From Haplodiscus bocki (taxonomy: Eukaryota), in NCBI GenBank assembly GCA_965655095.1, contig OZ296654.1, positions 57,288,001-57,352,000 of the forward strand: a stretch of 64,000 nucleotides of DNA, in the 5' to 3' direction. Numbering within the stretch: the stretch's first letter is position 1; every line of letters starts with the position of its first letter. The translations under genes and the position numbers were made by a program. The notes under the pieces were generated by a model. The model searched no databases. It had not been told where the DNA came from and worked only from the letters and a program-made list of their open reading frames with translations. Of this stretch, positions 4,801 through 64,000 are shown in pieces.

Positions 4801-4869
4801 GCCAAAATATTAATCAATTTTCATTCGTCTTTCTAGTTTCCTTTGTATTTAACTTTTTAGAAATTTTTT

Positions 4870-6170: not shown

Positions 6171-6189
6171 TTTAGTTTTTAAAATCTTT

Positions 6190-7270: not shown

Positions 7271-7399
7271 AAACATTTTTGAGCCGCTATCTGTTTTTCG
7301 ATACTTGTTACCGTCAACATGTTTCTATTTTTAAAAATCATTTATCTCCAAATAATTTTTCATCCCGAAAAGGGCTCGTTTTTGGTACACACTACAATT

Positions 7400-7990
7400 T
7401 TTTCTGGTTTTCCTTGTTACGAATGTTATACTGACCTTCATTTTCATTTTTAAACCTATCAATATAGAAATAGGTTTTTCTTTCTTCCTTCCATACTTCT
7501 CTAGACATTTTCTTTTTTTTTCATCATAAATCATAACAAATCCAGCAGTTTTTTCAAAAGGTTTTTCACATCTTCAAAAGTTTGTTCAGTCAAAATGAAT
7601 ATGTTGCAGTTCTTTCGTTTTGACGTTTCTGGTAAATCACAACAAGATTGACACAAAAGATAATTATCTAAATCTTTTTGACGCCCCGTAGTGATAAAAG
7701 GACCAGTTTCTACTTGGCTCTAATCTAACATATCAACAGAAAACCGCAAAACCACTAGTTTCTCTGATCATCTATAAAAAATGCATCATTATGTTGTTCA
7801 GATGATCTGGTTTTTTCAAGAACATCTCTGTAAACTATGATTTCAATTTTTTCATTCTAGCATAACTTTTACCGGAACAAATAAAAAAAAAGGTACCCAC
7901 AGAACGAGTCCTACAAAAAAGAATTTTGTTTTTTTTTCATATATAGTTTTTCGCAACCATTTTTGCTGTGCAATTTTTCCCAAAACTGCC
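7400..7990 (-). pseudogene. A32/FtsK-like DNA packaging ATPase
   Basis: Minus strand reads 'PFITTGRQKDLDNYLLCQSCCDLPETSKRKNCNIFILTEQT' (GRH..SQSYFDLP..IRxN motif), preceded by a decayed Walker B and Walker A ('RTRSVG..'). Confidence 0.75.
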
Positions 7991-8309
7991 ATGTATTTTT
8001 TTTTATTTAAAAAATCTTCACATATTTTTCTACTTTCCTGTATTATTTTTCACCGTCTGAAAAGTTTTTCCGTTTTTTACAAAAATAACGATATGAGGCC
8101 AAAAAGTAGGAAAAGTGGTTCAAAAAACCATGTCCCAGAATCAGTCACGGACTGAGATCAAGGTTTGTTTCTGGACTTAGGTCTACCTTTCACTTCTTTC
8201 AGCCTGCCTCAGAGATTTTTTTTTTCTTACGTTTATTTTAATTTTACTAGGAAAATTTGTTTTTCTAATCTACTTCTGTTTTTTCAAGAAAAGGAACAAA
8301 TATTTTTTT

Positions 8310-8800
8310 TCAATTAAGTGTTTTGTCAAAATATTTCACAGAGACTCATGTATATTTTCTTCAATCACATTATCTGGTCAACAATTTCTATGTAAATCAT
8401 CAGACGAGAAAATCTTTTGTTGTGCTCTTTCAGAATATTATTTTTAGATTTCGTATTTCTTCAAAAATATTTCAAGTGGAACCTTATTGTTTATTGTTAA
8501 TCCGCTGGCAACTCCTTTGGAAATTGGCAAACTATCAACCAAAAACCAGTCACACATAATATTATGAAAGTGAAAGTTGTAACAATGAAAACAGGAGTAT
8601 CAATTTTTTTAATGTGTTAGGTACGACTACATAGTTCTTATGTTTCTTTTTTGCTTTGCCATTTTCATCGTTAAAGTAGGTAACATTATCGTTGAGATTG
8701 TTAAAAGAGTTGTAACAGATATAAACATCCTTCTTCAGTTTTCCAATTTTTGTTCCAACATTTGTGGATGGTTCTAGCGGCGCAGATGTATATGACTTTG
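8310..8800 (-). pseudogene. Polinton-associated protein with hydrophobic (probable transmembrane) hairpin
   Basis: 'KIDTPVFIVTTFTFII...LPISKGVASGLTINNK'; homologous to 46330-46810. Confidence 0.55.
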
Positions 8801-8859
8801 AAGCAGACCTTTCAGAATACAGAAGAACTCTTTTATTTTTAATTTAGACAATGTTAGAT

Positions 8860-9120
8860 TGATTATTGTTTTTACCAGTATGTGAAAGTTTTTATACATC
8901 TAAAATTGATGATGAAGCTGCCATAGGATTTCTAGATACTGCTGCGTTAACCATTTTTTCTTATTTTTTTTCAATACCCTTCCAGGATTGTTCAATAATT
9001 TCTTAGCTGATTTACAAACAGAATCAGCAGAATCAATTGCTATGTTTTTGAAAACTTCACGAAATATTCAAACGTTGTGTCTTTATGATTAACAATATTT
9101 GACTCTTTTTCTTACATTGA
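8860..9120 (-). pseudogene. Small basic/amphipathic Polinton protein
   Basis: 'VNAAVSRNPMAASSSILDV..HTGK' is homologous to ORF 46040..46252 and to 26900-27300. Confidence 0.55.
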
Positions 9121-9299
9121 ACGCAATTAAATTAAGAATTTCCGAACTGTTTTTAGTTTGATCTCCTTTCAAGGGCTATTGTATTGGAATAACGACGACC
9201 TCGACTGCAGAAGTTAACAGTTTTAAAATCTTCATACGACATATTTCAGAAAGCCTTAAATTTACAATTTCAATACCAGTAAAGTAAACGTCATACTCT

Positions 9300-10100
9300 C
9301 AATATTAAAATCATTTCTACTTTTCTTCCTTTTTCCATTTATAATGTATTTTTTTTTCTAAATTGAATAATTTCTTCTTTCTTAATGACTTGTTTCTGTA
9401 TAAATAGAAATTTTGTATACTCGTTGTTTTTCTAAAGCAGAAGTAGATGGAAAAGTTGGTCTCAAACCACTAATAATGGTTCCTGCAAAACAATCGCTTT
9501 TTGATTAAACTTCAATAAATTTAATTTTTTTTACAAATTGACACCAAAAAAGGTAGTTATGAATTTTTAAACCCAGTATTGATCATAACAAAAATTGTTC
9601 TTTTGAAAAAAATATTGATTCGTCATACCATAAAGCTTTATTTGTTTCTAATTTTGAATTCATCGTTACATTGTTGACGGAAAATCAATGTCAACTTTTT
9701 TCAACTGGTCAATTTGCGGCATATTTTCATCTAACTCCGGTACTAATTCAGATGGAAGAAAAAGAGAATTGAAATATGTTAAAAATTGTTTAATGTCTTC
9801 TCTTTTCGTTGTTTTTTTCATTCTAACGAAAAGTTTAAAATTTCGAAAAAATGTTGAAAAAGTTCAGTCAAAACTTTTTCAAAAGCCTTACTACTTTCGT
9901 CATATAAAATGAAAATTGTTCTTCTTCTGCCAAGTTAAATGAATTTTTCATTACATTTGTGTTACTTTTTAGTTTATTCAAAATTTTTCGGAAAAAGTTC
10001 GTCAAAATCCTTTTTTATTTTTTTCGTTTGAATCGATTAGACTCTTTTCGTCATAAGTATGTTAAGGAGTACATTTTTTCAACCTAAAAAATTCGTCGTC
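9300..10100 (-). pseudogene. Probable second paralog of the ATPase-MCP spacer gene
   Basis: 'SGLRPTFPSTSALEKQRVYK..' resembles a decayed SGL..SSDPNELxDRLKLL motif; duplicated at about 20700-21500. Confidence 0.35.
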
Positions 10101-10149
10101 TTCGGGAGTGGGGAATTAGCTCTCCACGCTATCTTCATCTACCTTTTGT

Positions 10150-10620
10150 ATTTTTTAATTTCGTTCTTTACAATTTTCTTTCAAAATCAAATTGAACTTT
10201 TCTTTGCTTGTTAGCAACATTAACAAAGTTCCTTCTAAATGTAATTTGATTCTGATGTTTGTTCTATTCAAAACTCTAATGTCTATAGTGGTTTTTTTTG
10301 TGTGTGGTTATTCATTGTCTTTGCAACTTCAGTAATGGTTGTAAAACGTCATCCATAACTATAAATATTGGAAAAAATGGAAAAGTTCACCATAACCTAG
10401 GCAATATCTATCTTTTAAATATTGCCAAGGTTATATGCTTGGGCAAAATGGCATCACATAAAAAGAAGCAACTTTCGGATTTTCTTCAATTCCTATAATA
10501 TGTTGAGCAAAAAAAATTGTTGGTTGTATAAGCTAAGTACCTGTCAATTAGTTAGTTCTTGGTGTGTTTTTTCATCATTTTGCAGTAAACTTACTATAAC
10601 ACGAAGAGCTATTTCAATCA
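10150..10620 (-). pseudogene. Possible second P-loop packaging ATPase paralog
   Basis: 'LRVIVSLLQNDEKTH' (decayed Walker A?) followed by 'IFIVMDDVL' (Walker B-like); duplicated at about 21550-22000. Confidence 0.3.
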
Positions 10621-11759
10621 AATCTTGTTGCATTAGGTAAATATCCATTAACATCCTTTAACAATTTCACCTCTTTTACCTTTGCCATCTTTTCTACTTC
10701 TTAAAAATATTCTCAGTTCTCTAAAATACTGATATTTTTTCCTAAAATCATCGTCTTCAGGATCCTCTATATAATATTTGTCATCTTAGAGACAAGTTAC
10801 CATAATAGAAGACATGTAGAAACGAAGTTTTTGTCTTCAGAAAATAATCTAATGTTCATAAGTTTAATTGGTCTACCATTTTTTAGGTGATTGTAGTTTT
10901 TTCGTGCTGGAAACCTTTGTCTTTCTCTTTAAATTTTTAATTTCGTTCTTTCCATTTGTTGTATTGAAACTAGAAATGATTATCTTCAATCTCGGTAGGC
11001 CCATTTACAAATTTCATTCTAAATTGAAAGTGCTTTTGATAAATGTTCTTTTGTAAATTCAAATATATCTTGCTCCTTTGTTTGTGAGGTGTTTTTCCCT
11101 TCTTTTGAAAAATCGAAAATAACAATTTTTCAAATTTATTACTAGAAAAAACCATCTTCAAATCCATATATATACTCTTTTTTCATTAGAATAGTGAAAG
11201 TTTCAGGTTCACCTTCAAGTTTGGCTACGTTTCCGCCATCTTGTTCCAAAAGAAGTGTTTTTAATAAAAAATTGGTTTCATTCTTTGAAAAGTCCAATTT
11301 TAGGTGTGATAATATTTCTATGTTCTCGTGCCACATATAATGGGAAACCATATAAACAAAGTTTACTAGTAACGTTTAAGAAGCTGCCATTTTTACAATC
11401 ACATTTAAAATGAATGTTATCACTTGTGATAATAATTTTCATCTGATCACTTTGTAACTGTCATTAGTTTTTTCCGTTGTGATTGGATCACAGTCTAATA
11501 TCGTGAGAAGCAGGATTTTTATCGAAGTTCGTTTCTGTAAAATCTTTTCCACTCTAGAGTGTCATATTTGATTTCGATGTTGTAGTGTCCGCTGTAATTA
11601 TTTTTAAATGGGGTAGGGTTTTAGTAATTCCCGTTTTTTCATAAGTAGCTTCTGGTGTTGACCAATAAAGTGTCATTGAATCTAGAGATAGTATGTCTAT
11701 TGAATCTGAACTTTCCAAAAAAAAGTTAGCTTCATTCTGTATTTCATATCGTCATAATC

Positions 11760-12090
11760 TTTACTTTTTTTCTCTTTTAATCCTCTGCTTTTTTCTTGAT
11801 AGGTTATAAATAGGATCGGGTAAAGAAACTGCTTTTCCTGGTATTGCTAATTCGTTTCTGTTTTTAATTTGACTGTCACCCTCTATTTCAGTTCTTTTTT
11901 CAACTGTGTGTTCAATTTTAAGAAATGTGGGAATATTATTATAATAACCAAGAGACAAAACTGAAAACGATTTGTTTTGATATGTTAAGATATATTTAAA
12001 CCTAATTACTTCTAAAGTCGGCATTACCATCATCCATTTTGCCTCTTTTGAATAAAACGGTGTTCTGAAAGAAAATTTTCTATTGTTAAT
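11760..12090 (-). pseudogene. Penton-like N-terminal fragment
   Basis: 'KWMMVMPTLEV..LTYQNKSFSVLSLG' (ORF 11761..12033) matches 'KWLLAVTSVEATN..TNENSSFSITIPG' in ORF 29172..29375. A longer copy lies at about 24450-24815. Confidence 0.5.
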
Positions 12091-14104
12091 TGAGTTTTCG
12101 AATCATAAAACGCACTAGACTCGGTAACTGTTGTCAACTTCATCTTTTTATCATTCTTTTTAAACTCCTAACTCTTCTTTGTCTTTTCAAAAAAGTAGAA
12201 TAATCATTTAAGATTTCATTTTTGATATCAACATATTTATATCAGCCAACACCATAAAGTGTTCGTATTGTAGCTCTGATAGTTTTTTGATTCAAAGTAA
12301 AGTTTTTGAATGTAAGTTCATAAAAGTGGAATCAGATTTTTTTGAAGACGGTTCTGCTTGTTCGTGTCATAAGCAGTTATGTTCGCTGTCTTCTATTAAA
12401 CCTTACATAAATTCATGTCTTTTTCTTTATTGACTCGAGTTTTATTCTAAATTGTTTTCCTCAATTTGTAAACCATTGAATTTTTTCGTTAATTAGTGTA
12501 GACTTTTGAACTTCTTCGAAAATTTTTTCTCATAGATTAAATTTTAGGTGTACAATACAAAAAGTTCACTTCTAACAACCTTATCAAATCTCCATTGACT
12601 CAAATTTTCTATTTGTGATTTGGCTAATAGAGTTTTCAAAATTCCCATCAAATTTTTACCTCTTTTCTCAACACGTTTTCTTTTGAATTGTCTTGCTCTT
12701 TTTTTGCCTTTTCTTGTTTCATCAAAATTTTCCCCAATTTATCACCTTCAGTAGATAATTTTAAAATATCATCTCTCTTTGAATTATACTCTCTTCTAAT
12801 AGTTGCCATAGTTACTTTTCTTCCCTCATCTTTTTTAACTGGTGTTAATAATGATTGGGCTGCATAATCTTTTGAATTTTGCTTTATTGGTTCTTCTATA
12901 GTTTTTACATTCGATACAAGTTGTATTGCTAACCCAAATTGATATGTATTTTATTTTTCATAAAATTTTGTCGAAGTATTTTCGTCGGTTTCAGTTACAG
13001 TTCCTTTTTCCACTAAGGATGAATTAACAGGAGCCCCTTGTAGTATATGTTTTTGTTTCGAGTTTTTTTTCGTTTTTATGGGCTGTCCATGTTCATTTCA
13101 TCTCTAAATATCTCAACGGTAGAATCTGAATATTCCAATTCTTTCGTTCTTTGTTTTGGTGTTAGCTTGGGATATTTCGTTTTCATATCTATGAAATTCA
13201 ACGGTAAGCTTTGTAATGGAAATCGAGTTTTGAATTTGGGTCCTTTTTTGTAATTTTTAAGGTGAATTGATAGAAGAGGTAGAATAATAAAATAAAAATA
13301 TGTTCATTTTGTGTTTTTGTTCTACAAAGTTCATCATATAATTCACTACATGTTTGAGCAAACTTGGTTTTATCATTCTTTCAATTTTGAAAATTATCTA
13401 CTACTTTAAATAAGTGTAATTCAAAAGTTAGTAATATTAATTTTTTTGAAGACTAATATTCGAACATTTAATTATTGTCTCACCTATAGTGACAATATTC
13501 AATTCAAATTCTAGATATATTTCAATTGTTCTTTTATTTATTGCTTTGAATGTTGTAACTTTGAAACTGGTATCACTTTTAAGAATTTTTTCCGACTTAA
13601 TTTTAGACTGAACCATTCCTTCAATGTAGTCTCTCCAAATTAAAGTAACTGCCATTCAAAAGACTAAATGTTTTCCATTATTGGTTTCTACTTCAAAAAA
13701 GTTTGTTCAATAACCTATCATGCATATTGAAATTCGTGTTGTACCATTCACTAAAAATTAGGAAAAAGGTGGTCCTCGGAATCACATTCGCTTCACAAAC
13801 GAGTAACTGTATTTTTTTCAAGTTTTTATCTCCGGTAGGTATGTCTCTATTTATCATAAAAGACAAAGTCCAATTTCACTGAAAAAAAATTCTACTGACT
13901 TCGGTGTGTTCCAAATTCAGACACCTGTTCAAAATCAGAAGATTATCTCTAATTATGGCTCAAAATATAGATAATTTTGCACTGGTGAATAGAGATAAGA
14001 ACTTCAACGTGCTAATGAGTCTTTTGGGTGATTAGCATTGAAGGCTTCTACTCCATAATTGTGTCCGCAACTTTACCTATTAGCATCTTAGTTAATAGTG
14101 GCTA

Positions 14105-16990: not shown

Positions 16991-17810
16991 TTCTTAGAGA
17001 CACTACTATGACATAAGAAGGTATATCGATTCCATTTCCAACGCCTAATTCAAAAATGCATTCAGTTAGGAGTTGTATATATCTCAAAAACGCATGTCTT
17101 TTAATGTGAGATAAATCATATGCAGTTTCATTTAAGTTCCGATCGTTCGATATATCGTGTTGAATCACACTCGGAATAAGGTGAGGTAAAAAAGTATTTT
17201 AGCTTTTGTGAAAATTTTTCCACATATTAGCGGATGATCGCCAGATAAATCACTAACAATGTTTTTTCTTTTAATTTTTTAATTGTCAATTTATAACGTA
17301 ATCCAAATGTAGCTTTCTCTGGATGTTCATTGAGAGCAAAAACATCTGTTAATTAATGGAAAGATGAAACTTACGTTTTTTTAATCAATACTTTCTCAAC
17401 TATGATAGTCAACTCCCAGAGCAAAACCAATGGAGGAACCCTTATGGTTTCTTGTTGATACAAATGAATTATTCCTTAAACAAACTGTATAATCACTAAT
17501 TTTCGACTCTATACTACTATTGGTTGAAATTTCGTACTGACTAAAGAAAGAAATTGGTCCTAAATTAACTAATTGTATGATATTAGCAATTGTAAATTTT
17601 CTATCAGCATCAACATCCTATTTTCCTTCATCGTCTATCACAGGAAATTTATCTCCTTAAGATAGTACTCAAATTTTTTCTTGGTTTATCAAACGAAAAT
17701 TGACCGTTTGTCGTGTTTGCACCGAATATTGATTGAGGAGTATAACGGTCATATTCAAATTTAAAAGTTTTTGTGTCAAATAAATTTTTTCAGATAATTT
17801 GAACTTTTGA
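16991..17810 (-). pseudogene. MCP type A, 5' part (copy)
   Basis: ORF 16974..17168 'IFELGVGNGIDIPSYVIVVSL'. Confidence 0.7.
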
Positions 17811-19049
17811 TTTAGTTTTTAAAATCTTTTGAGTTATGGTAAAGTGTTTATTTTCTGGCACTCATCATTAACAGCTACAATTTCATCATCAAATCCATCA
17901 GTGCCATTTCCACCATTCGTTTCCGGGATGATTTATTGAGAACTTTTACATAATTGACATGGAGTTTGTGGAACAAAAAAGTCACTGAACGGAAACCAAG
18001 CTGCCCAGAATTTCGATCACAAAAACTTTTTTTTTCACATTTTTCACAAACACTTCTTTTGAATCATCACTTGCCTAGTAATATTCAAAATGACCATCAT
18101 GGTCTTCTTCTTCCTATTCTTCTTCTTCTTCTTTTTCTTCTTCGTCTTCTTTTTTGTCTTCTAGCCCACTAGAAACACTTTCATTGCATCTAGTTTGAAT
18201 TCCAGACTTCGTTTGTGGGTCAAATTTTGTTCGATTAGGTAATTTATCGTTAAAAAATTTGTGTCTTTTATCTTTACCACTTTCTTATTTTCTCAAACCC
18301 TCAATTCTTTCGAAAATTGGTACACTTTTCTAAAGTTGCAAATTGATGATCTTTAAAATTATCTTTATCTTAAAGAAAAGAAAATACCATTTCTAAGAGA
18401 GGGCCTGTAAAATTAGAACTTTTCCAGGAACTACGAGAAGAAATTCAATATTCAGAAGTTCATTTCCTCCACCGTTTTTCATGTAATCATTTTTTTGTAA
18501 TAGAAAATCATTCAAATCTATTTCGAGTGCTTTTTCTTTTGTCTTCAGCAAAACAAAATCATCAATTACAGCTCCAATTGGATTTGGCTCTTTTTCTCCA
18601 CATCTCCAGTACTATCATTCACTTTTTTAAGTCCTCTCTTTGCAGTAAGTTTTCACCTAAACTAGTTATAGATTCAACTGGCTGTCCGTCTTGTGCAAGT
18701 GTACTGCTTGGAAATTATTATTATTTTTATTGTTCGTATCAATTGCTTTAAATTCCATAAGTGTGGCTTTTGTTTGTCTAAGTAATTTTTCACTCGAATC
18801 TTTAACTGATTTTATTATTGGTTCAGAACGAGCTGACTTCTTAAACCACAAGCCGTTTCAACTAATTTTTCTTAAACTTACAGGTTTCCACACACAATTG
18901 TAACGCTGCAAAACATTTTTGAGCCGCTATCTGTTTTTCGATACTTGTTACCGTCAACATGTTTCTATTTTTAAAAATCATTTATCTCCAAATAATTTTT
19001 CATCCCGAAAAGGGCTCGTTTTTGGTACACACTACAATTTTTTCTGGTT

Positions 19050-19630
19050 TTCCTTGTTACGAATGTTATACTGACCTTCATTTTCATTTTTAAACCTATC
19101 AATATAGAAATAGGTTTTTCTTTCTTCCTTCCATACTTCTCATACTTCTCTAGACATTTTCTTTTTTTTTCATCATAAATCATAACAAATCCAGCAGTTT
19201 TTTCAAAAGGTTTTTCACATCTTTAAAAGTTTGTTCAGTCAAAATGAATATGTTGCAGTTCTTTCGTTTTGATGTTTTTGGTAAATCACAACAAGATTGA
19301 CACAAAAGATAATTATCTAAATCTTTTTGACGCCCTGTAGTGATAAAAGGACCAGTTTCTACTTGGCTCTAATCTAACATATCAACAGAAAACCGCAAAA
19401 CCACTAGTTTCTCTGATGTCGTCATCTATAAAAAATGCATCACTATGTTTTTCAGATGATCTGGTTTTTTCAAGAACATCTCTGCCAAATATGATTTCAA
19501 TTTTTTCATTTTAGCACAAACTTTACAGGAACAAATAAGAGAAAAGATACCCACAGAACGAGTCCTACAAAAAACCATTTTTGTTTTTTTCATATATATT
19601 TTTTCGCAACCAATTTTGCTGTGCAATTTT
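19050..19630 (-). pseudogene. Packaging ATPase (copy of 7400-7990)
   Basis: Near-identical to 7400-7990; ORF 19426..19626. Confidence 0.75.
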
Positions 19631-22009
19631 TCCCAAAACTGCCATGTAATTTTTTTTAATTAAAAATTTTTCACATCTTTTTTTACTTTCCTGTATTACT
19701 TTATACCCTCTGAAAAATTTTTCCCTTCTTTCCAAAAATAACGATATGAGGCCAAAAAGTAGGAAAAGTGGCTCGAAAAGCTATGTTCCAGTTGCGGGGA
19801 AATCAGAAAAGATAATCTTTTGTTGTGCTCTTGCACAATATTATAGATAGATTCCATATTTCTTCATAAACATTTCATATAGTACCTTTATGTTTATTGT
19901 TAATCCGCAGGCAACTCCTTTGGAAATTGGCAAACTAACAATCGAAAACCAGTTACACAAAATATTATGAAAGTGAAAGTTGTAACAATGAAAACAGGAG
20001 TATCAATTTTTTTAAAGTGTTAGGTAGGACTACATAGTTCTTATGTTTCTTTTTTGCTTTGCCATTTTCATCGTTAAAGTAGGTAACATTATCGTTGAGA
20101 TTGTTAAAAGAGTTGTAACAGATATAAACATCCTTCTTCAGTTTTCCAATTTTTGTTCCAACATTTGTGGATGGTTCTAGCGGCGCAGATGTATATGACT
20201 TTCAAGCAGACCTTTCAGAATACAGAAGAACTCTTTTATTTTTAATTTAGACAATGTTAGATTGATTAATTTTTTTACCAGTATGTGAAAGTCTTTATAC
20301 ATCTGAAATTGATGATGAAGCTGCCATAGGATTTCTAGATACTGCTGCGTTAACCATTTTTTCTTATTTTTTTTTCAATACCCTTCCAGGATTGTTCAAT
20401 AATTTCTTAGCTGATTTACAAACAGAATTAGCAGAATCAATTGCTATGTTTTTGAAAACTTCACGAAATATTCAAACGTTGTGTCTTTATGATTAACAAT
20501 ATTTGACTCTTTTTCTTACATTGAACGCAATTAAATTAAGAATTTCCGAACTGTTTTTAGTTTGATCTCCTTTCAAGGGCTATTGTATTGGAATAACGAC
20601 GACCTCGACTGCAGAAGTTAACAGTTTTAAAATCTTCATACGACATATTTCAGAAAGCCTTAAATTTACAATTTCAATACCAGTAAAGTAAACGTCATAC
20701 TCTCAATATTAAAATCATTTCTACTTTTCTTCCTTTTTTCATTTATATTGTAATTCTTTTTTTCAAAGTTGAATAATTTTTTTCTTTCATAAAGTCTTGT
20801 TTCTGGATAAAAAAAATTGTAAGCTCGTTGTTTATCTAAAGCAGAAGTAGATGGAAAAGTTGGTCTCAAGCCACTAACAATAGTTCCTACAAAACAATCG
20901 CTTTTTGATTAAACTTCAATCAAATCAATTATTTTTTCAATTTAACACCAATCAAGGTAGTTATGAAATTTTAACCCCAGTATTGATCATAACAAAAATT
21001 GTTATACTGAAAAAATATTGTTTCGTCAAACCATAAGGCTTTATTTGTTTCTAAGTTTGAACTCGTCATTATATTGTTAACAGAAATTGAATGTCAACTT
21101 TTTTCAACTGGTCAATTTGCGGCACATTTTCATCTAATCCCGGTAAAAATTCAGATGGAAGACAATGAGAATTGAAATATGATAAAAATTGTTTAATTTC
21201 TTCTTTTTTCGTTTTTTTTTCATCTAACGAAAAGTTCAAAATTTCGAAAAAATGTTGAAGACTTTCAGTCAAAACATTTTCAAAAGCCTTACTACTTTCG
21301 TCATATAAAATGAAAAATGTTCTTCTTCTGCAAAGTTAAATAAATTTTTCATTACGATTGGGTTACTCTATAGTATTTTCAAAACTTATCAAAAATAGTT
21401 CGTCATAATCTTTCATTCGTTTTTTCGTTTAATCGATTAGTCTATTTTTGTCATATGTATCTAAAGGAGTACATTTTTTAACCTAAAAATCTCGTGGTCT
21501 CCCGGAGTGGGGACATAGCTCTCCACGTTATCTTCATCTACTTTTTGTTTTTTTTAAAATTCGTTCTATACAATTTTTTTTCAAAATCATTTTGAACTTT
21601 TCTTTGCTTGTTAGCAACATTAACAAATTCCCTTCCAAATGTAAATTGATTCTGATGTTTGTTCTTTTCAAAACTCTATTGTCTCTAGTGCTTTTTTTGT
21701 TAATGGTTTGTTATTGTCTTTGCAATTTCACTAATGTTTGTAAAACGTCATCTTTAAATAGAAATATTGGAAAAAATGAAAAAATTCACCATAACCTATG
21801 CAATATTTATCTTTTAAATATTGCCAAGGTTACATGCTTGGGCAATATGGCATCACATAAAAAGAAGCATTTTTCGGATTTTCTTCAATTCCTGTAATAT
21901 GTTGAGCAAAAAAATTGGTGGTCCGTCAAAGCTAAGAACCTGTTATTTATTTAGTTCTTGGTGTGTTATTTCATCATTTCGCAGTAAACTTACTATAACA
22001 TGAATAGGT

Positions 22010-22809
22010 ATATCAATTCCAGTTCAAACAGTCAGTTAAAAAATTGCGTTCACATTGTTGTTGTACGTAATTCATAAACGCAGATGTTTTGATGTAAAAG
22101 AAGTCAGTTGAAAGTTCAGTTATTTTGTGATGGTTCCATTAATCGTGTGGAGTTACACTTGGAGTTTAGTGAGTTAAATACCGATTCACAGCAATTTTGA
22201 AAATTTTTCCAATTACTGTAGCATGATCTCCAGGTGAGACACTATCAGTATTAGCCTTTCAATTTGTTAGTATATAACTTAATCAATATGTAGCTTTGTT
22301 GGATGTTCATCGAAGCCAAAGAGATCGTTTAGTAAAATGCTTGCATGAAACTTACTTTTTTTTCAAGAAGGCTTCTTTCTTGCGATCATCAATTTCAGGT
22401 ACAAAACATAGGAGAAATCTCTATGATATCTAAGTGAGCTGAAATATTATACACAAAACAAACTATATGATCTTGATCAATGTTTTCCAGTTTTTTCCAC
22501 CACTAGTTGATAATTTGTTCTCACTATATGAGAAAATGGACACAAATTAATTAACCGCATACCATCAGCATTTGTGAATCACCTGTCAGCACCAGAATCA
22601 TGTTTAACTTCACCGTCTATTTCAAGATAACCATCTCTGCAAGATAGTACTGAAGTTTCTGTTGGTGAATCATTAAAAATTTCACCGCTTGTTGTGTTTG
22701 CACTAAGTTTTGATTCCGCAGTATAAAGGCTATAATCACAGTTAAGGATTGTTCTGTCAATTATAAATTTTCTCAGATAGATAATATTTCGAATTAGTTT
22801 AAAATTCAT
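22010..22809 (-). pseudogene. MCP type B, 5' part (divergent paralog)
   Basis: ORF 22579..22809 'IDRTILNCDYSLYT..SVLSCRDGYLEIDGEVKH' aligns with the MCP N-terminus at 48660 ('LDRRILKCVYVIYSP') and with about 5600-6170. Confidence 0.65.
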
Positions 22810-22998
22810 TGATTTTTTTGAGTTCTGGTAATGCGTTTATATTCTAATAACTCTTCAAGTACGGCTACAATTTCATCATCAAACAACTTAATGTCATTTT
22901 CACCCTTCTTCTTTGAGATTACTAATTTTATTCTGTTCTTCAACTGATCTGGATTTTGTGGAAGACAAAACGTCAATATACGGATACCTAATTGTCCA

Positions 22999-23000
<2 letters not shown>

Positions 23001-23052
<52 letters not shown>
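23001..23052. repeat. (CT)26 microsatellite
   Basis: Perfect dinucleotide run. Confidence 0.98.
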
Positions 23053-23057
<5 letters not shown>

Positions 23058-23152
23058 AATCTTATCAAACTTTACAAAATAACTTTTTTTGAGTCATCGC
23101 TTGCGTAGTATGGTTCAATAACCGAAACAAAGTTTTGATCTGCTTGTCGTTC

Positions 23153-23184
<32 letters not shown>
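23153..23184. repeat. (TTG)n microsatellite (poly-Gln on minus strand)
   Basis: About 10 perfect units. Confidence 0.95.
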
Positions 23185-23185
<1 letters not shown>

Positions 23186-24999
23186 TTCTTCATTCCCGTC
23201 TACATACCTATCAGGTGTAACTTCATTTGAATTGCATATTTCCCTCCTGGATCAAATCTTGTTGCATAAAGTAAGTATCCATTTACAATTTCATCTCTTT
23301 TACCTTTGCCATCTTTTTTACTTATTACAAATTTCTTCAGTTCTCTCAAAAACTGATACTTTTTTCTAAAGTCATCATCTTCAGGATCCTCTATACTATA
23401 TTTGTCATCTTAGAGACCAGTTACCATAAGAGAAGATATGTAGAAACGAATTTTTTGTCTTTAGAAAATAATCTGTTGTTCATAAGTTTAATTGGTCTAC
23501 AATTTTTTAGGTGACTGTAGTTTTTTCGTGCTGGAAACCTTTAGCTATTTTTTATATTTTTAACTTCGTTCTTTCCATTTGTTGTAATGAAACTAGAAAT
23601 GATTATCTTCAATCTCGGTAGGTCCATTAACAAATTTCACTCTAAATTCAAAGTGTTTTTGATAATTGTTCTTTTGTACATTCAAATGTCTGTTGCTCCT
23701 TTGTTTGTGAGGTGTTTTTTCCCTTCCCTTTGAAAAATCGAAAGTAACAAATTTTCAAATTAATTACTAGAAAAAACCACATTTAAATCCAATTATAAAC
23801 ACTTTTTTCATTAGAATTGTGAAAGTTTCAAGTTCACCTTCAAGTTTGGCTACGTTTCCGCCATCTTGTTCCAAAAGAAGTGTTTTTAATAAAAAACTGT
23901 TTTCAATATTTGAAAAGTTCAATTTTAGGTTTGATAATATTTCGATGTTCTGGTGCCACGTATAATGGGAAACTATATAAACAACGTTTATTAGTAACGT
24001 TTAAAAAGCTGCCATTATTACAATCACAATTACAATGAATTTTATCATTTGTGATAATATTTTTCATCTGATCATTTTGTAACTGTCATTAGTTTTTTCC
24101 GTTGTGATTGGATCATAGTCTATTACCGTGAGAAGCAGGACTCTTTATCAATTTTCTTTTCTGTAAAATCTTTTCCACTCTAGAGTGTCATATTTGTTTT
24201 CGTTGTTGTAATGTCAGCTAAAATTATTTTTAAATGAGGGAGGGCGTCATTAATTCCCGTTATTTCATTAATTGCTTCTAGTGTTGACCAATAAAGAGTC
24301 ATTGACTCAAGAGATAGTATGTCTATTAAATCTGAATTTTCCAAAAAAAGTTACTTTCATTCTGCATTTCATATCTTCATAGTCTCTACTTTTTTTTCTT
24401 TTTTAATCCTCTGTTTTTTTCTTGATAGGTTATATTTAGGATCGGGTAAAAAATTGCTTTTTCTCGAACTGCTAATTCGTTTCTGTTTTTAATTTGATTG
24501 TCACTCACTACTTCTGTTTATGTTTCAACTGTGTGTTCAATTTTGAGAAATGTGGGACTAATTTTATAGTAACGAAGAAACAAAAATGAAAAGTATTTGT
24601 TTTGATATGTTATGATATATTTAGACGTAAATACTTCCAAAGTCAGCATTACCATCATCCATTTTGCCTCTTTCGAATAAAACGGTGTTCTGAAAGAAAA
24701 TTTTCTATTGTTAATTTAAAATGGGGTCCGAAGTTCCTTGTGGTTTTGTTTTTGTTTGCTCATTGACTTTGTCAGTGACTTTTTCAATTGTGAGTAATAG
24801 TTCATCTCTTTTAAATTAACTTGAAAACCTTAGTTCCTTCAGTAGTTACCTTTTTTCACAAATTATCACTTCACCGTGGAAACTTTTTTACTTCATCTTT
24901 CCATTCTCATTAGGATTACGGTTTCCTCTACACACTGGTTTGTTTCTCACACTGTTATCAATATTATTTTTCTTTTTCTGTAAGTTTTTCAACGACATT

Positions 25000-25340
25000 A
25001 TTGTAGTAAAGCATTTCAGAATTTTTTGGGTTAAGTTGTTTATTAAGTAAATAGTATAAAGCTAATAGGCAGCACTGTAACTGTCTTTTCCTTGAATTTT
25101 TTGATCAAAAAACCAACTTTTTCATTTTTTTTTCATTGATAAAACATGATAAAATTTTCAGAGGTGGGCATCAGCAAGATTGTTTATAGTATTCGTTTTA
25201 TATGCTATCCAGTGAGTACCTTCAGTGGCATGAAGATTTACAGTACCATATTGTGTTGTAAAATTACTGTCCCTCAATTATTTCTTGGTATTCAATCCCA
25301 ATTGATTTGGTCTTTTTTTATACTTTTGTGTCTGATGTTC
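25000..25340 (-). pseudogene. Adenain-like maturation cysteine protease
   Basis: 'GTVNLHATEGTHWIAY' and 'QKIQGKDSYSAAY*LYTIYL' (His and Gln/Cys motifs; catalytic Cys lost). Confidence 0.75.
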
Positions 25341-26599
25341 ATCGAGTTTTGGAATGATAAAACGCACTAGACTCGGTAACTGTTGTCAACTTCATCTTTT
25401 TAACATTTTTTTAAACTCCTAACTCTTATCTGTCTTTTCAAAAAGTAGAATAATCATTTAAAATTTCATTTTTGATATCAACATATTTATATCAGCCAAC
25501 ACCATAAAGTGTTCGTAATGTAGCTCTGATAATCTTTTGAATCAAAGTAATGTTTTTGAATGTAAGTTCATAAAAGTGGAATCAGTTTTTTTGAAGACGG
25601 TTCTGCTTGTTCGTGTCATAAGCAGTTATTTTCGCTGTTTTCTATTAAACCTTATATATTCATGTCTTTTTCTTTATGGACTCGAGTTTTTTTCTAAATT
25701 GTTTTCCTCACTTTGTAAATCATTGAATTTTTTCTTTAATTAGTGTAGACTTTTGAACTTTTTTAAAAATTTTTTCTCATAGATTAGTTTTTAGGTATAC
25801 AATACAAAAAGTTCACTTCTAACAACCTTATCAAATCTCCATTGACTCAAATTTTCTATTTGTGATTTGGCTAATAGAGTTTTCAAAATTCCCATCAAAT
25901 TTTTACCTTTTTTCTCAACACGTTTTTTTTGAATTGTCTTGCTCTTTTTTTGTCTTTTCTTGTTTCATCAAAATTTTCCCCAATTTATCACCTTCAGTAG
26001 GTAATTTTAAAATATCTTCTCTCTTTGAACAATACTCTTTTCTAATAGTTGCCATAGTTACTTTTCTTTCCTCGTCTTTTTTAACTGGTGTTAATAATGA
26101 TTGGGCTGCATAATCTTTTGAATTTTGCTTTATTTGTTCTTCTTTAGTTTTAACATTCGATACAAGTTGTATTGCTAACCCAAATTGATATGAATTTTAT
26201 TTTTCAAAAAATTTTGTCGAAGTATTTTCGTCGGTTTCAGTTACAGTTCCTTTTTCCACTATGGATGAATTAACAGGAGCCCCTTGTAGTATATGTTTTT
26301 GTTTCGAGTGTTTTTCGTTTTTATTGGCTGTCCATGTTCATATCACCTCTAAATAATTTAACGTAGAATCTGAACGTTCCAGTTCCTTCGCTCTTTGATT
26401 TGGTGTTAGCTTGGGATATTTTGTTTCCGTTTCCATGAAATTCAACGGTAAGCTTTTTAATGGAAACCGAGTTTTGAATTTGGGTCCTGTTTTGTAATTT
26501 GTAAGGTGAATTCAAAGTAAAGGTAGAACAATAATAAAAAAATATGTTCATTTTGTATTTTTGTTTTACAAAGTTCGTCATACAATTCACTACATGTTC

Positions 26600-26820
26600 A
26601 AGCAAAACTCTTGATAAATGACCATTTTCACAAGGATATGAATCAGCTAAAATTGACCATAAGAAACAATTTTTATCAAACTTTGCTATATTTAAGATAG
26701 CGTTTGATGGTAAAGGAATTTTCACATAACGCGAACCTTTTAATTCAACACTTTTACAAAATCCTATTCTAATTGAATTAGTTTTGTCAAATATCCAACT
26801 TGAATTTTTTCTAATCTTCT
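26600..26820 (-). pseudogene. pPolB N-terminal region fragment
   Basis: ORF 26321..26725 begins 'KIPLPSNAILNIAKFDKNCFLWSILA..PCENGHLSRV', a motif typical of Polinton pPolB N-terminal regions. Confidence 0.65.
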
Positions 26821-57259: not shown

Positions 57260-59291
57260 GAGCGCGGATTCTTCCAAACCTAGGGAAAATCCCTCTGCAA
57301 ACACTTTAACCAAAGTAACCACTTGCTGCCTTTGAAGTCAATGGTAAACCATTCAAGTTTGATTCTGTTCCAAGAATTTGGACTATTCCTTGTTGGCTCT
57401 TCAAACCGTTATCCAAAAAACACAGCTCACTGAAAAAATTTTCACTACAATCAAAATGAGCGGGAACTGGCTGTTGTCACATTCCCGGTTTTTCTCTCAT
57501 GCTGAATGAAGGAAAGATAACAACCAGAGGTAGGAGTTGGTCTTGAAAAGCACTTGAAACGCAGTGCAATTTCGATGAACAATTCTGATTTTCTTTTTAA
57601 AATATTGGATGGTAACTGAAGGTAAAAACGCGTTGCATATGGTAGGGGAATAAAACCAATTTCTTGTAAACTTATCTAAAATTTTCCAATCTTCATTATA
57701 CTAGAAATAACATTAGCCTATTTTAAGCGTTTTTCTGAGGAAATCAAAATTTTTCGAAAAGTCTTTATTTTCGAGTTAATTAAATTTTCACACAAATCAT
57801 TAGTTTAGAAATTTGAAAAAATTTAGGAAAATCCATAATCATTGAATGCGAACATAGCAAACAAAAAAAATACTGTTTCATTCCCCTCTTACTCTTTTCC
57901 ATAGATTTGGTAGAATTTTATATGACATACTTTTTGGATTTTTCAGCTTTTTCAGAACCTTTTTTTCATATTATCTTTCAAAAATGTGCCTAATAATTCA
58001 ATATTTTTATTTTTGTCATCCCCATTATAATTTTCATGAACTTCTAATGACTGTTTCGGATCAGCTTTTTATTTTCATAGTGTGAAATCATCTGTTTAGC
58101 CACATTCTACGTTGTTCTCTTTTCTTTTTTTTGCCAATTCGGTTTTGTAAAATTTCTTCTTTGGTTGTTTCTTTGGACGGGATGCCACTACCACTTTCTG
58201 CGATATCGTTGATTTTATTTTCATCTTGTTTCATTTGTCACACATTTTTTTCCATTTGACAATTGAATAACAATTGTAACTTTTCCGGATAAACCGAAAA
58301 ATGTTTTGATTTGGTGTTTCTTTTTTGAAACGAGTCACTTCACGTCAACTCCTTTGATGTAACACTTTTTAGTCTCTTTATTCTTGCAACTTTCAATATT
58401 AGTTTTCTCCTCTTCATTTTTGAGCAGTTTTATTGCTTGGGATGGTGTATTCCTTTTGTTTCCATTTGTTTACACACTGCAAGTTTCAAAGCTTGAATGA
58501 GTTCCAAATGCGGATAGAACTATTGGCAAGTTTTTTTTCTTTTTATATTTTTCTTGATTTTTCTGAAAATTTTATGAACATACCTTCATCTAAAAATTGT
58601 CTTTTGTAATTATCCTGAGGAATCGCAAATCTTTGTTTATTAGTAGTCTTCATTTATTTTGTATTATGTAGCGAAGATGTCTTTGTTACTTTTTCAAGTG
58701 AAGTAATTGAAAACTAAGCTCATTTGAACACAAAGGCTACCTATAGAAATGGGAATGGAAATAGGAAGAAAAACATATTTTATTACAGATACATTTACAT
58801 AACGATGTGGTCTTTCCATATAAAGATGGTTTTCCTAATAGCACACTGTCAGTTGCTTTTCTTCGTAAACTTTCATCAAGAAACCCACATAAACTTTTCT
58901 TTGTTGATTTTGAATACCTAGTATCCTTTTTATTTGTAATGGTGATCTTAATTTTAAAATTCTGACCTGTGAGTAAATTATATACACAGTCTAGATATTC
59001 ATTGAACTTCCCAAATTTTAACGTTACTTCTGTTACCACTTTAGGTTTTTCAGTAACATCAACTCTACTTCTGTTTGTGCAAACTTTCGGTTTGAAGGCA
59101 CAATTTTCTTCAATTGAGTTTGATTTTCATTAGGTGCTTCTTTTTAAAACTTCTTGAAATTTTCATTTTTGTTACTGTGAAGTTCCTGTTTTGTATTCGA
59201 GTCATTAAAATCAAACAAACCAAAGTCCTGTAAATTTTTAGATACTTAAGTAGTAGATGGCGGAGTTGATCAGACGGGGGGGGGAGACCCT

Positions 59292-59600
59292 CCATGTATT
59301 AGGATAGGCTATAGCAGCCGACTCGTGCCCAGAGCCGAGAAGGGATTCCCGGCCATGTATTAAGATAGGGTATGTTTCGCCAATGTATGAAGATATGCGA
59401 TAGGATATTAAGATAGGGTATAGTTTCGGCAATGTATTATGATAGGGTATAGTTTCAGCAATGTATTAAGATAGGGCATAGCTTCGGTAAGGTATTAAGT
59501 TAGGGTATAGTTTCGGCAATGTATTAAGACAGTGTTTTTGGTAAAGTATGAGGATATGCAATGGTCTCGCAATGTATCAAAATATGGAATAGGGTACTTT
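59292..59600. repeat. Subterminal tandem array, about 29-bp unit CAATGTATTAAGATAGGGTATAGTTTCGG
   Basis: About 8-9 variably degenerate units; the best-preserved run lies at about 59404-59533. Confidence 0.9.
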
Positions 59601-59820
59601 CGGTACTGTGCGGTAATTTTCGGCACTGTGAAATTTTTCGTCGATTTTTTGACCCACCCGCGCCCGCCGCCGGATAATTATTCCGCCGCCTGTCGTCCGC
59701 TGACGCTCCCTTATACTTATTCTGCCGGCACATAATTTTTTCCGCCGCCGGATTTTTTTCCCCCCAATTAGTATAATGTGAGCAGATGTGGGGGGGGGGG
59801 AGAGGGGGGAAAGAATAGGA

Positions 59821-59889
59821 CCAGTCAGCGGGATTCGAACCTGCGCGGTCGGAGTGCTGGACGGCATAACTTTTTTTGTGATTGAGCTA
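59821..59889 (-). promoter_or_regulatory. tRNA-derived Pol III type-2 promoter cassette (A box + B box)
   Basis: Minus strand TAGCTCAAT (59889-59881) and GGTTCGAATCC (59841-59831); the 3' part CCGCGCAGGTTCGAATCCCGCTGACT resembles a eukaryotic tRNA-Ser T-arm/acceptor; no intact cloverleaf. Confidence 0.55.
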
Positions 59890-60022
59890 TGTAAAAGGAT
59901 TGTGGTGAAGTTTTAAAAAGTTAATTAGCTAGTAGTTTCAGAGATTGACACGTAATAAAAAGACTTAGAATAGCTTCAACTTTGATATCAAAAAACAATT
60001 ACTATGCGTGAAAAAAAATGGT

Positions 60023-63000
60023 TTACAAATTCAAAAGACGAGTGTGAATACCATCAGCGTCTACAATTCTCTTTGGGTAAAAGTAAGACAGTCCGTTTTT
60101 GGTCTGTTCATAAATAGCCACACTGTGATGAACGGCTCGGAAACCTCTATTAGTCGATCGAGATTAAGTTAAAGAAGTCATCCAAGACTTTTCGATACTT
60201 TGCCATTGGACCATCACCACAGTCTTCTAACGTTTTTTTTTGTTTAAAACTTTGCTGCTGTTGGACTTGGAATCATAACAACAAGGGGTTTTATTGCATA
60301 AACACAACATTTCTGTGCAACGAAACTCCTCTTTGAAAAGACCAGGCTCTCGTTTATCATATTTCTTATGTTCTGTGCAGCAGGCTCTAGGGAAGAAGTT
60401 GGTTGTTGCGTTAGCTGTGAAATCATCTCTGCAGCTCAATGCTCTCATCAATTCCCATTCAACTTTAGATTCTACTCGAATGCAATCGTACAACTCTTTT
60501 CCAGACAGAGCGAAATACAAAGAGTCAGTGTCCATTTCTAACTACTCAAAATTGTTGACGTCACAGAATCTCTGAAAAAATTTGTAGTAAAGCTCCACTG
60601 TTCTAAGTTTAGCGTATTGAAGTATGAAGAGTCCAACAATGATTGGTTCTCTGTGCTCAATCTCTGCCTTCGCCAATTCTACTTCATACAATTGATCATT
60701 GATGTGATCCAAACGCTTGAACAATTTTGTGTTGACAGCCTCATATAATTTCTCATCGCTCAAATATTTTGTGACAGTGTGGCGACTACGATCCATAATT
60801 TGAAAGCCGTAGGAACCATTGGCAAGCAATTTCATTGTTTCTGCGACAACACTTGATTTTGGAATCTCGTGTCCTTCTCGACGGGCAGTGACAGCCGATT
60901 GCAAAAATTTACTGAAATATTCAACTGGAATTCATTCCACGAAGCGAAAAAGTTTTTTGGGTACTAGTCCCAAGTCTAAAAAAATCAGAAGCAGAGGAGT
61001 AATGAGAGTTCCGTTTTCAAGGAAATAGCTTGAAATCAACAGTTTCCGTTGTTGACAAAGAAGTCCTTCTTTCCCAGCATAGTCTTTCATCAGTAATCCA
61101 ATAACATGGCGACCTACATTTGTTTTTTTGAAAATGGGTGGAAAAGTGGCAAAATTCTTCTTGAGCTCTTCTGGCACTTCAATGTCACAATGTACATGAG
61201 CAAACAACTTACCGCTTCTTCTTTGTTCCAACAGTCTCTCTTCTCTCAGTGAACGTTTGCAAGGAAATGATTCTTTCAAATGTTCTGTAACACAATTTGT
61301 TGTCTTATAGAGGTTCCACCATTCACATTCCCACATTTGAACAACATTATATCCTTTTTTTGATGTACTGCTTTCTCATGTGGTCCATTTTTCCCTTTTG
61401 TTGCCGCGTTTGATATCTTCTTTAGTTAGAGTAGGTCGTGCATCTTGACATGGACAGTAAGAATGGAAGCAGCCCATAGCCTCAAACACGGTTTTACAAT
61501 GTGCGCAAAAACCATCTACCTTGAAACAGTCAATATTTTTCTGAGTTCCTGTAGTGTAGAAACACTCAATTCTACAGTCTGCTTTTTGTCTTTGGAAATA
61601 TAACATAACCATGTTCTCAAAGGTTCTAGATTTGTTTTAGTGAGGTTTCAGCCTGTTAGATTCTGTGTTATATTCCCATCACTTGTACAGTCCTGTTGAC
61701 ATGGACTGACAAAAAGAAGAAGGATAAAGCTAACTTGCGTCAATGCCAACAATAGATTTACAAATATTTCTTGAATTCCGGATAAAAGTGTCTTGGACTA
61801 CAGCTTTACGTGTGAAGACGATAGTAGGACCACCAACCATAACTTTTCGAACTTTTTGCAACAAGTCTCTATCGTTTTCAGTAAATGGATAGAATTTGGC
61901 ACTGGTAGATTTGTAGAGACAAATATTAGCCAAATTCGGAAGTGTACACCAGAACTTCAACCTTTCAATTCTTTTCTTGTGATTAAAAACAAGCAGTTTT
62001 TGCATTGCTTCCAGTGTTGGGACAACGTCTTCTGTACGTTGTATCAGCGTAGAAAGTCTTTATATGTGCACATATTAACATGATTCCATATATCAAGCAA
62101 TTATTGGTAGTTTTCTTCTCCTGAAGGCGGTGGTTTGGAGAGCTTCATTTTAGACAGTGCTTCTGGAGTCTTCAATCCGCAGGTAAGTAATTTTTGATAA
62201 TCTGAATGGTCCTTTTCCAGGAGGTTCAGCTTTCCAAGTTTGCTGAAAAATGCGTTGCAAGGAGAAAATTCACTGTTATTCACCTTTGTGGACAGTAGAA
62301 CCATTCATAGTGAAAAAAGTTTTTAGTTTCTGATGTTTTATAAGCTTTAAGAAACGATTCAAGGCTTGTTGCTCCACCGAGAAAGTTCATTAAAGCTGAA
62401 CGTCATCATATTTAAAAGACACAAATTGGTTGGCTTTTTAAATCACAGTAGGTTACTTACTCCTCTCATTGTTGAGAATGGGTAACAAATGAGATTTGAT
62501 CAAGTTGATGTCGTATTTTGTGCTATTAAATCCAAACGCTGGTAAAACGTTGCAGTAACGTTCAAGATGTTCTCGGAGCTCAATCAATTGATTTTTCTGC
62601 ATTTGCAAAAATTGTGTTGAAGCATCTTCCTCTTCGCTCTCATCTCCGAAACATTGGTCCTCGGACTCAAAAACTCGTCGGTTGCGGAAGCGGTGTTCCT
62701 TGAGAGATTGCAAATTCGGGTTACTTTTTGATTGCTGTTTCTACTTCCAGAAATTTCAATTTCAACTGAGTTTTGCTTTGTTTAGCTAAACCTTCAACAG
62801 CGTCGATGAACGATTCAAGCAAATCGCCTAGATTAGAATTGCAGAGAAGTTTCGGCATGGCTTTTAGATTTGAGGATATGGAGACTTTTATTGGAACATG
62901 TTTACCAATCCAAGTTGTTGTCTCGTTGTCTTTGAATTTTTCCTCCGGTATACAGATAGATTCAAAGTCGAAAACAACTAGATTGGTAAAGAGTTTCTGA

Positions 63001-64000
63001 TCATCTGTGTATTGGATACCGAACGAGTCAAGCTTATCAAAAAGCGTTTCTCGGAGTTGATACACATTCTTTGGATATATATGCTCCACACGTTCACTGC
63101 ATCTGACCAAGTGACGCTCCAAGTTTCCAGTCCCTTGGAAATATGTATCGCAAGTTGTATAGCGGAAAGCCTTGAAGGTGTCATGGAGGTTGTCTACGTA
63201 ACAAAATGTCTATTACATCGTATCAACTGAACTTTCTTCTCGCACTTTTTGATGTTTTGTCGTGCAGGCTCCCCAAACATTGCACCATCAAAAAGGTCAA
63301 GGTCATATACGAAAATATTGATTCCTACAAAACCTTCCACAGATAGAATGTCATCCATGAAAACTCTTTGGAGCTTTGAAGGGTCATGGTTTGTACTGTT
63401 AAAAAGAAAGAGATTGAACAACTTTGATGTTTCTTTTTCTCTTCTTCGAGTCTCATCCTTTCCATGCAAGTGGAAAACAAGTGCTCTGAAGAGCAATGAT
63501 TGTCTTTGTATGGTTTTTTGGTGTTCTGCTCGTAAGTAAGGCTATTGACTGTATGATTTTTTAGAAGAGATTCAGGTTGAAATGCATCCTTGCAAACCAT
63601 CGGTATATCTCTCAGTAGAGCAGCAAATACTGTTAAGTTTTTTAATTTTAAGAAACCTCCACTTTGTATTGGACCTCTCTTTTGTGCGTGACTCAATCAC
63701 GTCGGTTTTCTTCAATATTTCAATTTCGTCATGTCGTCTTTGTAACTCACAAGTTTTGACTGTTCCAACAGAGTGTTGTTCTCATGAGCATAAAAGTATC
63801 TGAAGTTCCCGTCTTCGATGTTTTTTAAAATGAAACCGAGAGCTAAATTAAGCTTCGCTCGACTTTTTAGATTATCCAGAACGCGATCCAGTTTTCCTTC
63901 GATAACCTGAGCTGTAAGGTTGATGACAACTAAATTGAACACGCTATTTCTACCTTTTGTTTCTCAGAATCAATCAAGAAATGTCTACACAACTGTCACT
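60023..64000 (-). pseudogene. Polinton pPolB with Vsr-like nuclease insert, frameshifted
   Basis: ExoI 'VVFDFES', ExoII 'GFNSTKYD', motif A 'IVGIDAS', insert 'KVDGFC..FEAMGCFH..MWECEW', motif B 'KLLANGSYG', motif C 'MDTDSLY', C-terminal 'YPKRIVDADGIHTRLLNL*'. Confidence 0.92.

Follow-up and report, generated by a model that had tools for sequence, protein, structure and literature searches.

The window, by which we mean the whole 64,000-nucleotide stretch of DNA that was analysed, contains part of a broken Polinton of ~17.5 kb, which extends beyond it to about G000:C7:57364785. Polintons (Mavericks) have terminal inverted repeats (TIRs) starting AGT and a 6-bp target-site duplication, and a TIR with such a duplication is found here (5/6 nt in the window's element; exact 6/6 in six pairs of a second family, B0, described below). 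The element carries broken homologues of pPolB, integrase, ATPase, capsid and protease, i.e. the Polinton gene set with an integrase of retroviral type and a packaging ATPase. The names pPolB, capsid and protease are presumptive labels assigned by characteristic motifs and not by Pfam match; in relatives, rve (E 5e-6) and Pox_A32 (E 0.013) both lie under the Pfam cut-off. As described in the available text on the 'adintoviruses' (PMC8502044), Polintons/Mavericks likewise have pPolB, an rve integrase, an A32-like ATPase, capsid-like and protease-like genes, TIRs and a 6-bp target-site duplication. A tRNA-like cassette sits within the left TIR (Table 1) and is also present at the far end of the element, and its proximity to the pPolB stop codon is therefore incidental; the initial annotation had placed it 130 bp downstream of that stop, and the measured distance of 134 nt (stop at 60025-60023) agrees. 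Left and right TIRs of the same element differ by 1-22% in pairs such as window/L032, L021/L016 and L007/L030, partly in array length, and such differences may reflect age or recombination between copies.

Table 1. Coordinates of the features of the Polinton end and its tRNA-like cassette, in positions of the window.
Feature	Position	Strand	Remarks
Left target-site duplication	59243..59248	+	5/6 nt equal to far-end flank
Left TIR, ~680 bp	59249..59928 (end ~59928)	+	78% identity with right TIR of the same element
29-bp tandem array	59406..59529	+	Related arrays in cassette-free family-C TIRs
T4 run read as terminator in the initial annotation	59579..59582	-	Private to the window's copy; T at 59581 in 1/43 copies
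Relic terminus of short-TIR family B0 (C run and terminal motif), now internal	59767..59808	-	
Segment homologous to family B0 end (tRNA-like 3' half and terminus)	59769..59856	-	
tRNA-Ser T-arm and 3' acceptor strand	59822..59848	-	26/27 nt identical to host tRNA-Ser(AGA)
Perfect B box GGTTCGAATCC	59831..59841 (59841-59831)	-	
Possible remnant of tRNA-Ser D-stem/anticodon-stem start	59856..59870	-	11/13 nt in family copy L010, weaker in the window
A-box-like motif TAGCTCAATCA	59879..59889 (59889-59879)	-	Lacks final G; mostly family-C-type inner-TIR sequence
T4 run just past expected start site	59893..59896	-	T5 in 32/41 copies; also in cassette-free TIRs
Broken pPolB gene	60023..64000	-	Several stops and frameshifts; stop codon 60025-60023

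The perfect minus-strand B box reported in the initial annotation is present, and taken alone it is within chance (0.51 expected in the window; found in 44/100 shuffles). The tRNA-Ser match at 59848-59822 is beyond chance, its score being reached by 0/1000 shuffles, which bears out the earlier description of the T-arm as tRNA-Ser-like. The D/anticodon region had been described as replaced and is perhaps not wholly so, since the start of a Ser D-stem/anticodon stem can be recognised in one family copy. Neither ARAGORN nor Rfam (no match at the gathering score) found a tRNA or known RNA at the cassette, a check that the initial annotation had proposed, and a functional tRNA gene is rejected on the grounds that neither program recognised a cloverleaf.

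The A box was reported at about 40 nt from the B box, and an A-like motif does lie 37 nt ahead of the B box in the window. It lacks the final G of TRGYNNARNNG in 39/41 type-A copies (G in 2/41), and a T4+ run is found <=12 nt upstream of it in 39/41. Both the TAGC start of the motif and the upstream T run also occur in cassette-free ends (36/42 in family C and 18/18 in family D) and are therefore older than the insert; reading the window's motif as a tRNA-derived A box is thus unsupported. Start sites of type 2 promoters average ~10 bp before the A box, according to the available part of PMC12409998, and with a T run at that place transcription would be expected to hit the run at once. For the 5' half and 3' allele of type-B ends a tRNA-Asn origin was considered; in comparisons with degenerate genes of an Asn/Lys cluster, the score was reached by 2 to 112/1000 shuffles. 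In the genome, at least 50 tRNA-Ser-like genes stand in tandem at G000:C1:26.51-26.67 Mb, and degenerate tRNA-Asn/Lys genes form another cluster at G000:C4:38.86 Mb. The 3' alleles of the cassette in L285, L296 and L141 have three unlike sequences after the B box, all ending in CCT, and these ends could pair with the start of the B box (by eye; also in the L141 fold).

A 20-mer ending in the B box has 686 matches in the genome, against 0 for the reversed control. These often form facing pairs ~16.5 kb apart, and a Polinton terminal motif follows 29/30 of them (the first 30 of 686 by position, all on contig C1). A pattern combining the host-type D-arm and T-arm has 54 matches; no free SINE source was found, because all 54 are tRNA-Ser-like genes. 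A tRNA-derived SINE is rejected, as dispersed free copies outside the element were found neither with the 54-match pattern nor among the 30 of the 20-mer matches looked at, 29 of which stand at Polinton termini. The initial annotation had allowed that the cassette might be a dispersed SINE confined to this copy; it is instead a fixed family feature in both TIRs, with the B core in 33/42 type-A and 30/36 type-B ends. Conservation of the boxes in other copies and in the opposite TIR, the further check suggested there, is found for the B box, at both ends, and not for the A box.

The TIR of family B0 is ~160 bp long and largely consists of a tRNA-like unit, in the order AT-rich patch, A-like box, T4 run, tRNA-Ser T-arm with B box, C run and, ~55 nt on from the box, the terminus. 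The unit occurs in 29/30 ends, which were picked by the neighbouring protein and not by the cassette (L313, which has no TIR, was left out of the B0 counts). The B core and an internal T4 are each present in 27/29, a T4 after the B box in only 4/29; the A-like box reads TRGY-N5-GG in 24/29, its 3' GG at tRNA-like spacing, with A7 in 0/29. An exact 6-bp target-site duplication lies directly past the B0 terminal motif in 6/14 of the pairs found, with one more by eye (no partner was found for 9/23, and one found partner lacks the unit). This motif is therefore the true end in B0. At one locus, L319 (G000:C2:5036358-5046357), a B0-type terminal motif has no preceding tRNA-like unit.

B0 differs from the window's family A in capsid (45-50% identity), pPolB (52%) and gene order. 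Positions 59856-59769 of the window align with the B0 end, terminal motif included, and on either side of them, inner and outer, the TIR aligns with family C. In the window's family (types A and AB) the tRNA arm and B0 terminal motif, ~90 bp in all, lie inside a long TIR, and the chimeric AB ends join a type-A start to a complete B0 unit. Judged from these alignments, the ~90 bp with the B box were likely captured from B0 by the window's family; we infer the direction, from B0 to A, from the internal terminus alone. A tRNA-Ser fragment would have become the core of B0's short end, which would later have been nested within a long TIR and then copied to both sides.

The captured B-box segment may well be an optional TFIIIC-binding DNA site rather than an RNA gene, and this is the reading that we tentatively prefer. 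It is favoured because types A, AB and B0 have the B-box segment in common whereas the A-like box, 3' allele and terminator vary, and because TFIIIC binds B boxes with high affinity; ETC sites, which have a B box only, are occupied by it and function as barriers (PMC12409998, available text). Such a putative site would serve to hold the integrated end open or to insulate it. The initial annotation had offered such a site as its second idea, which is now better than its RNA idea. In the old, broken copy of the window any TFIIIC role has probably lapsed. Like ETC sites and tRNA-gene insulators, for which a TFIIIC-dependent barrier has been proposed, the cassette combines conservation of its B box with the lack of a good A box or full transcription unit; the ETC sites are loci of the host that were recognised by ChIP, whereas the cassette is a predicted site in the TIR of a mobile element (as far as the available part of PMC12409998 describes them).

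It is quite possible, if somewhat doubtful, that the segment is instead a passenger, a tRNA-Ser fragment caught once and kept by copying and swapping of whole TIRs, with a B box that is useless. Families C and D, with capsids 77% and 75% identical to that of A, have related TIRs without the tRNA arm (0/60 capsid-side ends; best match 10-11/18 nt), which fits a passenger and counts against a TFIIIC site, the more so as cassette-free family C has many intact copies; nor was a B box found in the TIRs located in four other elements. At a distance of only ~55 nt from the captured end, the B box would be carried along by any capture. Outside the promoter, the flanks of the T-arm retain their match to tRNA, as for a recent capture, and L319 supplies a B0 terminus without the unit. 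In type A, moreover, the relic terminus, presumably idle, is as conserved as the B box.

Against a passenger stands the conservation of the box in B0, where the 25 nt ending in it are the least diverged segment of the TIR (4.4%, where four-fold sites reach 13.3% and the terminal 24 nt 15.9%; in this test 21 copies were compared with one young copy, so that all are measured against one young lineage). The common B-box variant falls at the free position of the box, and the 3' GG of the B0 A-like box keeps its tRNA-like spacing in 24/29, both again unfavourable to a passenger. GTTCGA is unaltered in 132/132 cells. Substitutions common to both TIRs of an element occur in 1/154 cells of the B core and 84/2440 elsewhere, a deficit which pooled by column gives p=0.04, the columns being non-independent; the conservation of the B box is matched by 39/395 of the intervals compared. 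In 12 protein-chosen B0 pairs, shared changes are too rare anywhere to test, and private hits in the B core (11/84, inflated by one pair with a unit-less partner) are like those of its neighbours. Near-identical young clones were collapsed in the conservation, pair and divergence tests. Together these sequence comparisons, weak and not independent of each other, are no more than suggestive of selection on the B box.

A larger role in B0 is conceivable, though we think it rather unlikely. The whole ~160-bp end would be a compact Pol III unit recruiting TFIIIC, perhaps with a ~50-nt RNA in the style of bovine leukemia virus (BLV), so that the integrated end stays open and can be reactivated; a family with a capsid only ~45-50% identical would have found the module useful enough to adopt it and distribute it over hundreds of ends. 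Less probable again is that the unit, mainly in B0 and AB, is a short Pol III RNA gene, in which the A-like box would start a transcript of ~45-50 nt ending at the internal T4 with the B box beyond, as in BLV, or, at ends with a T run past the B box, a tRNA-like RNA of ~90-95 nt would be made. The internal T4 in 27/29 B0 ends is consistent with this, and the order of A box, terminator and B box is functional in the Pol III miRNA genes of BLV (PMC12498455, available part). B0 shares with these genes the succession of A-like box, T run and B box, its A box keeping positions 1, 3, 10 and 11, but BLV encodes stable pre-miRNA hairpins whereas the B0 unit folds no better than shuffles (PMC12498455, for BLV and within the same limits): four B0 short units and one from L141 gave z -0.88 to +0.34. 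The full unit of L141, with a long T run 17 nt past the box, folds at z -2.7 (4/200 shuffles); it is, however, 1 of 10 folds tried, the other 9 lying at z -0.94 to +1.26. Compensatory change in the B0 (donor-family) unit was found for 0/19 predicted RNA pairs, A7 is missing in 29/29 A-like boxes, a T4 follows the B box in only 4/29 ends, and the window's type is without a B0-style A box, all of which weigh against a short RNA.

The GC-rich transcript of ~310 nt predicted in the initial annotation is rejected. Its supposed terminator, near 59578-59582, is indeed the first T4 past the B box in the window (59582-59579, 248 nt on), but the base that it needs is private to this copy. Across 42 type-A ends the first T4 comes 12 to >790 nt after the B box, in the right TIR of the window's own element 567 nt after it, and no conserved terminator was found across copies. 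The region downstream of the box consists of indel-rich repeats, and the predicted 310-nt RNA folds like shuffles (z 0.12). Three of four sequencing runs, all of them contigs, attested the DNA only and speak neither for nor against expression. Neither a conserved hairpin nor a cloverleaf is supported by the folding and compensatory-change tests, the covariation check proposed earlier having returned the 0/19 given above. On the sequences compared, the 310-nt species is already largely refuted.

Adenoviruses and Polintons are related, and the initial annotation had likened the cassette to adenoviral VA RNA. VA genes, as presented in the available text of PMC7589676, are ~160 nt long and show conservation of both boxes, A and B, together with a fixed T4 end and a three-domain fold, and their RNA is an abundant transcript that blocks PKR or Dicer. 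The cassette is like them in its type 2 Pol III boxes, in a possible tRNA derivation (a tRNA-gene origin is hypothesised for VA genes) and in belonging to a linear dsDNA element with a protein-primed polymerase (PMC7589676, in part); its intragenic B box is conserved (33/42 and 30/36 ends) and has an A-like motif at the workable spacing of 37 nt. It differs in that its unit lies inside a TIR and its terminator and fold are not conserved (PMC7589676, same portion). There is no conserved A box, the final G standing in 2/41 and the motif being largely older than the insert; no fixed T4 that would give a discrete ~160-nt RNA; and no stable apical/central/terminal stem fold with a GGGU-ACCC stem, GGGT and ACCC occurring only near the 3' end. 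That the cassette is a VA-RNA analogue, a ~310-nt structured Pol III RNA directed against host dsRNA/RNAi defences, is highly improbable in view of the private terminator and variable first T4, the shuffle-like fold without an Rfam match at the gathering score or compensatory pairs, the T4+ run just past the expected start in 39/41 copies, the indel-rich repeats downstream and the absence of the cassette from sister families.

Helenus/TRIMp3 (Kojima 2024, PMC10886601, available text) bears in each of its terminal repeats a fixed, non-functional sequence of tRNA origin with Pol III boxes, and a tRNA-derived sequence with the GGTTC box B lies in both terminal repeats here too. Compared with the Helenus box as given there, the window has TRGCY and lacks YGG, and B0 has TRGC and YGG (24/29) and lacks the fifth Y. 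Helenus is an LTR retrotransposon, short and non-autonomous, that has direct LTRs, a PBS and a PPT and needs an RNA intermediate, so that a promoter has an obvious use there (PMC10886601, same text). The element studied here, at 17 kb, belongs to the protein-primed DNA elements and has inverted repeats, a capsid and its own genes, and its unit points outward at the terminus; membership in Helenus is rejected on this basis. The main text of the Helenus paper has 0 mentions each of 'Polinton' and 'DNA transposon' (PMC10886601), and the available text of the adintovirus paper refers to tRNA a single time, for genes predicted in other MELD viruses, and to 'polymerase III' and 'VA RNA' 0 times (PMC8502044). 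In the literature covered, we found no account of Polinton TIRs with Pol III boxes or with sequence derived from tRNA; the 2006 Polinton paper, supplements and Repbase/Dfam lay outside this coverage, and a family description there could already note it.

The preferred reading, a TFIIIC site at the element's end, touches on how integrated Polintons escape silencing and reactivate, and on roles of the TIR beyond its last few bases. B0 offers a natural 160-bp TIR that is mostly a tRNA-type promoter, and the sister families without the unit are built-in controls, which brings a TFIIIC role within reach of an assay on a short piece of DNA. Irrespective of function, the nested terminus indicates that end modules can be exchanged between distantly related Polinton families, and terminal repeats of tRNA origin, known in retrotransposons (Helenus), are here met in a DNA element as well. 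If the segment is a passenger, it would neatly illustrate how TIRs evolve and caution against Pol III predictions made from one decayed copy.

Among four metagenome loci there was one true relative, contig L141, which has a B0-type end of ~84% identity with the long T run 17 nt past the B box. Viral contigs gave no useful relative, and in one further search outside the genome 91/121 matches were tRNA loci and none was B0-like. The search for relatives outside the genome also returned one capsid match at 27%; B0 capsid relatives in other assemblies have 78% and 67% identity.

Several further observations were made on these elements. Many Polinton families coexist genome-wide, with >90 Pfam DNA_pol_B_2 matches among those scored, besides A/AB, B0, C and D. 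Toward the terminus of the long AB and C TIRs (L058, L163 and L199 among others) lie repeated motifs which we take to be CCAAT-box-like and GC-box-like. In the B0 and AB elements L275-L276 and L281-L284 no TAAAT motif was seen at start codons. Internal inverted duplications of 4.8-6.9 kb with ~94-95% identity occur in L279-L280 (G000:C8:14065500-14084400) and L146-L147 (G000:C8:10345000-10364200), which are possibly palindromic defective Polintons; in L279-L280 pieces of pPolB are present, and capsid, integrase and ATPase were not found. Upstream of the Polinton, the window contains large direct duplications, 5351-13362 versus 16991-26606, in 85-99% identical pieces 11.4-13.2 kb apart, and another at 1-2001 versus 3312-5307, ~3.3 kb apart.
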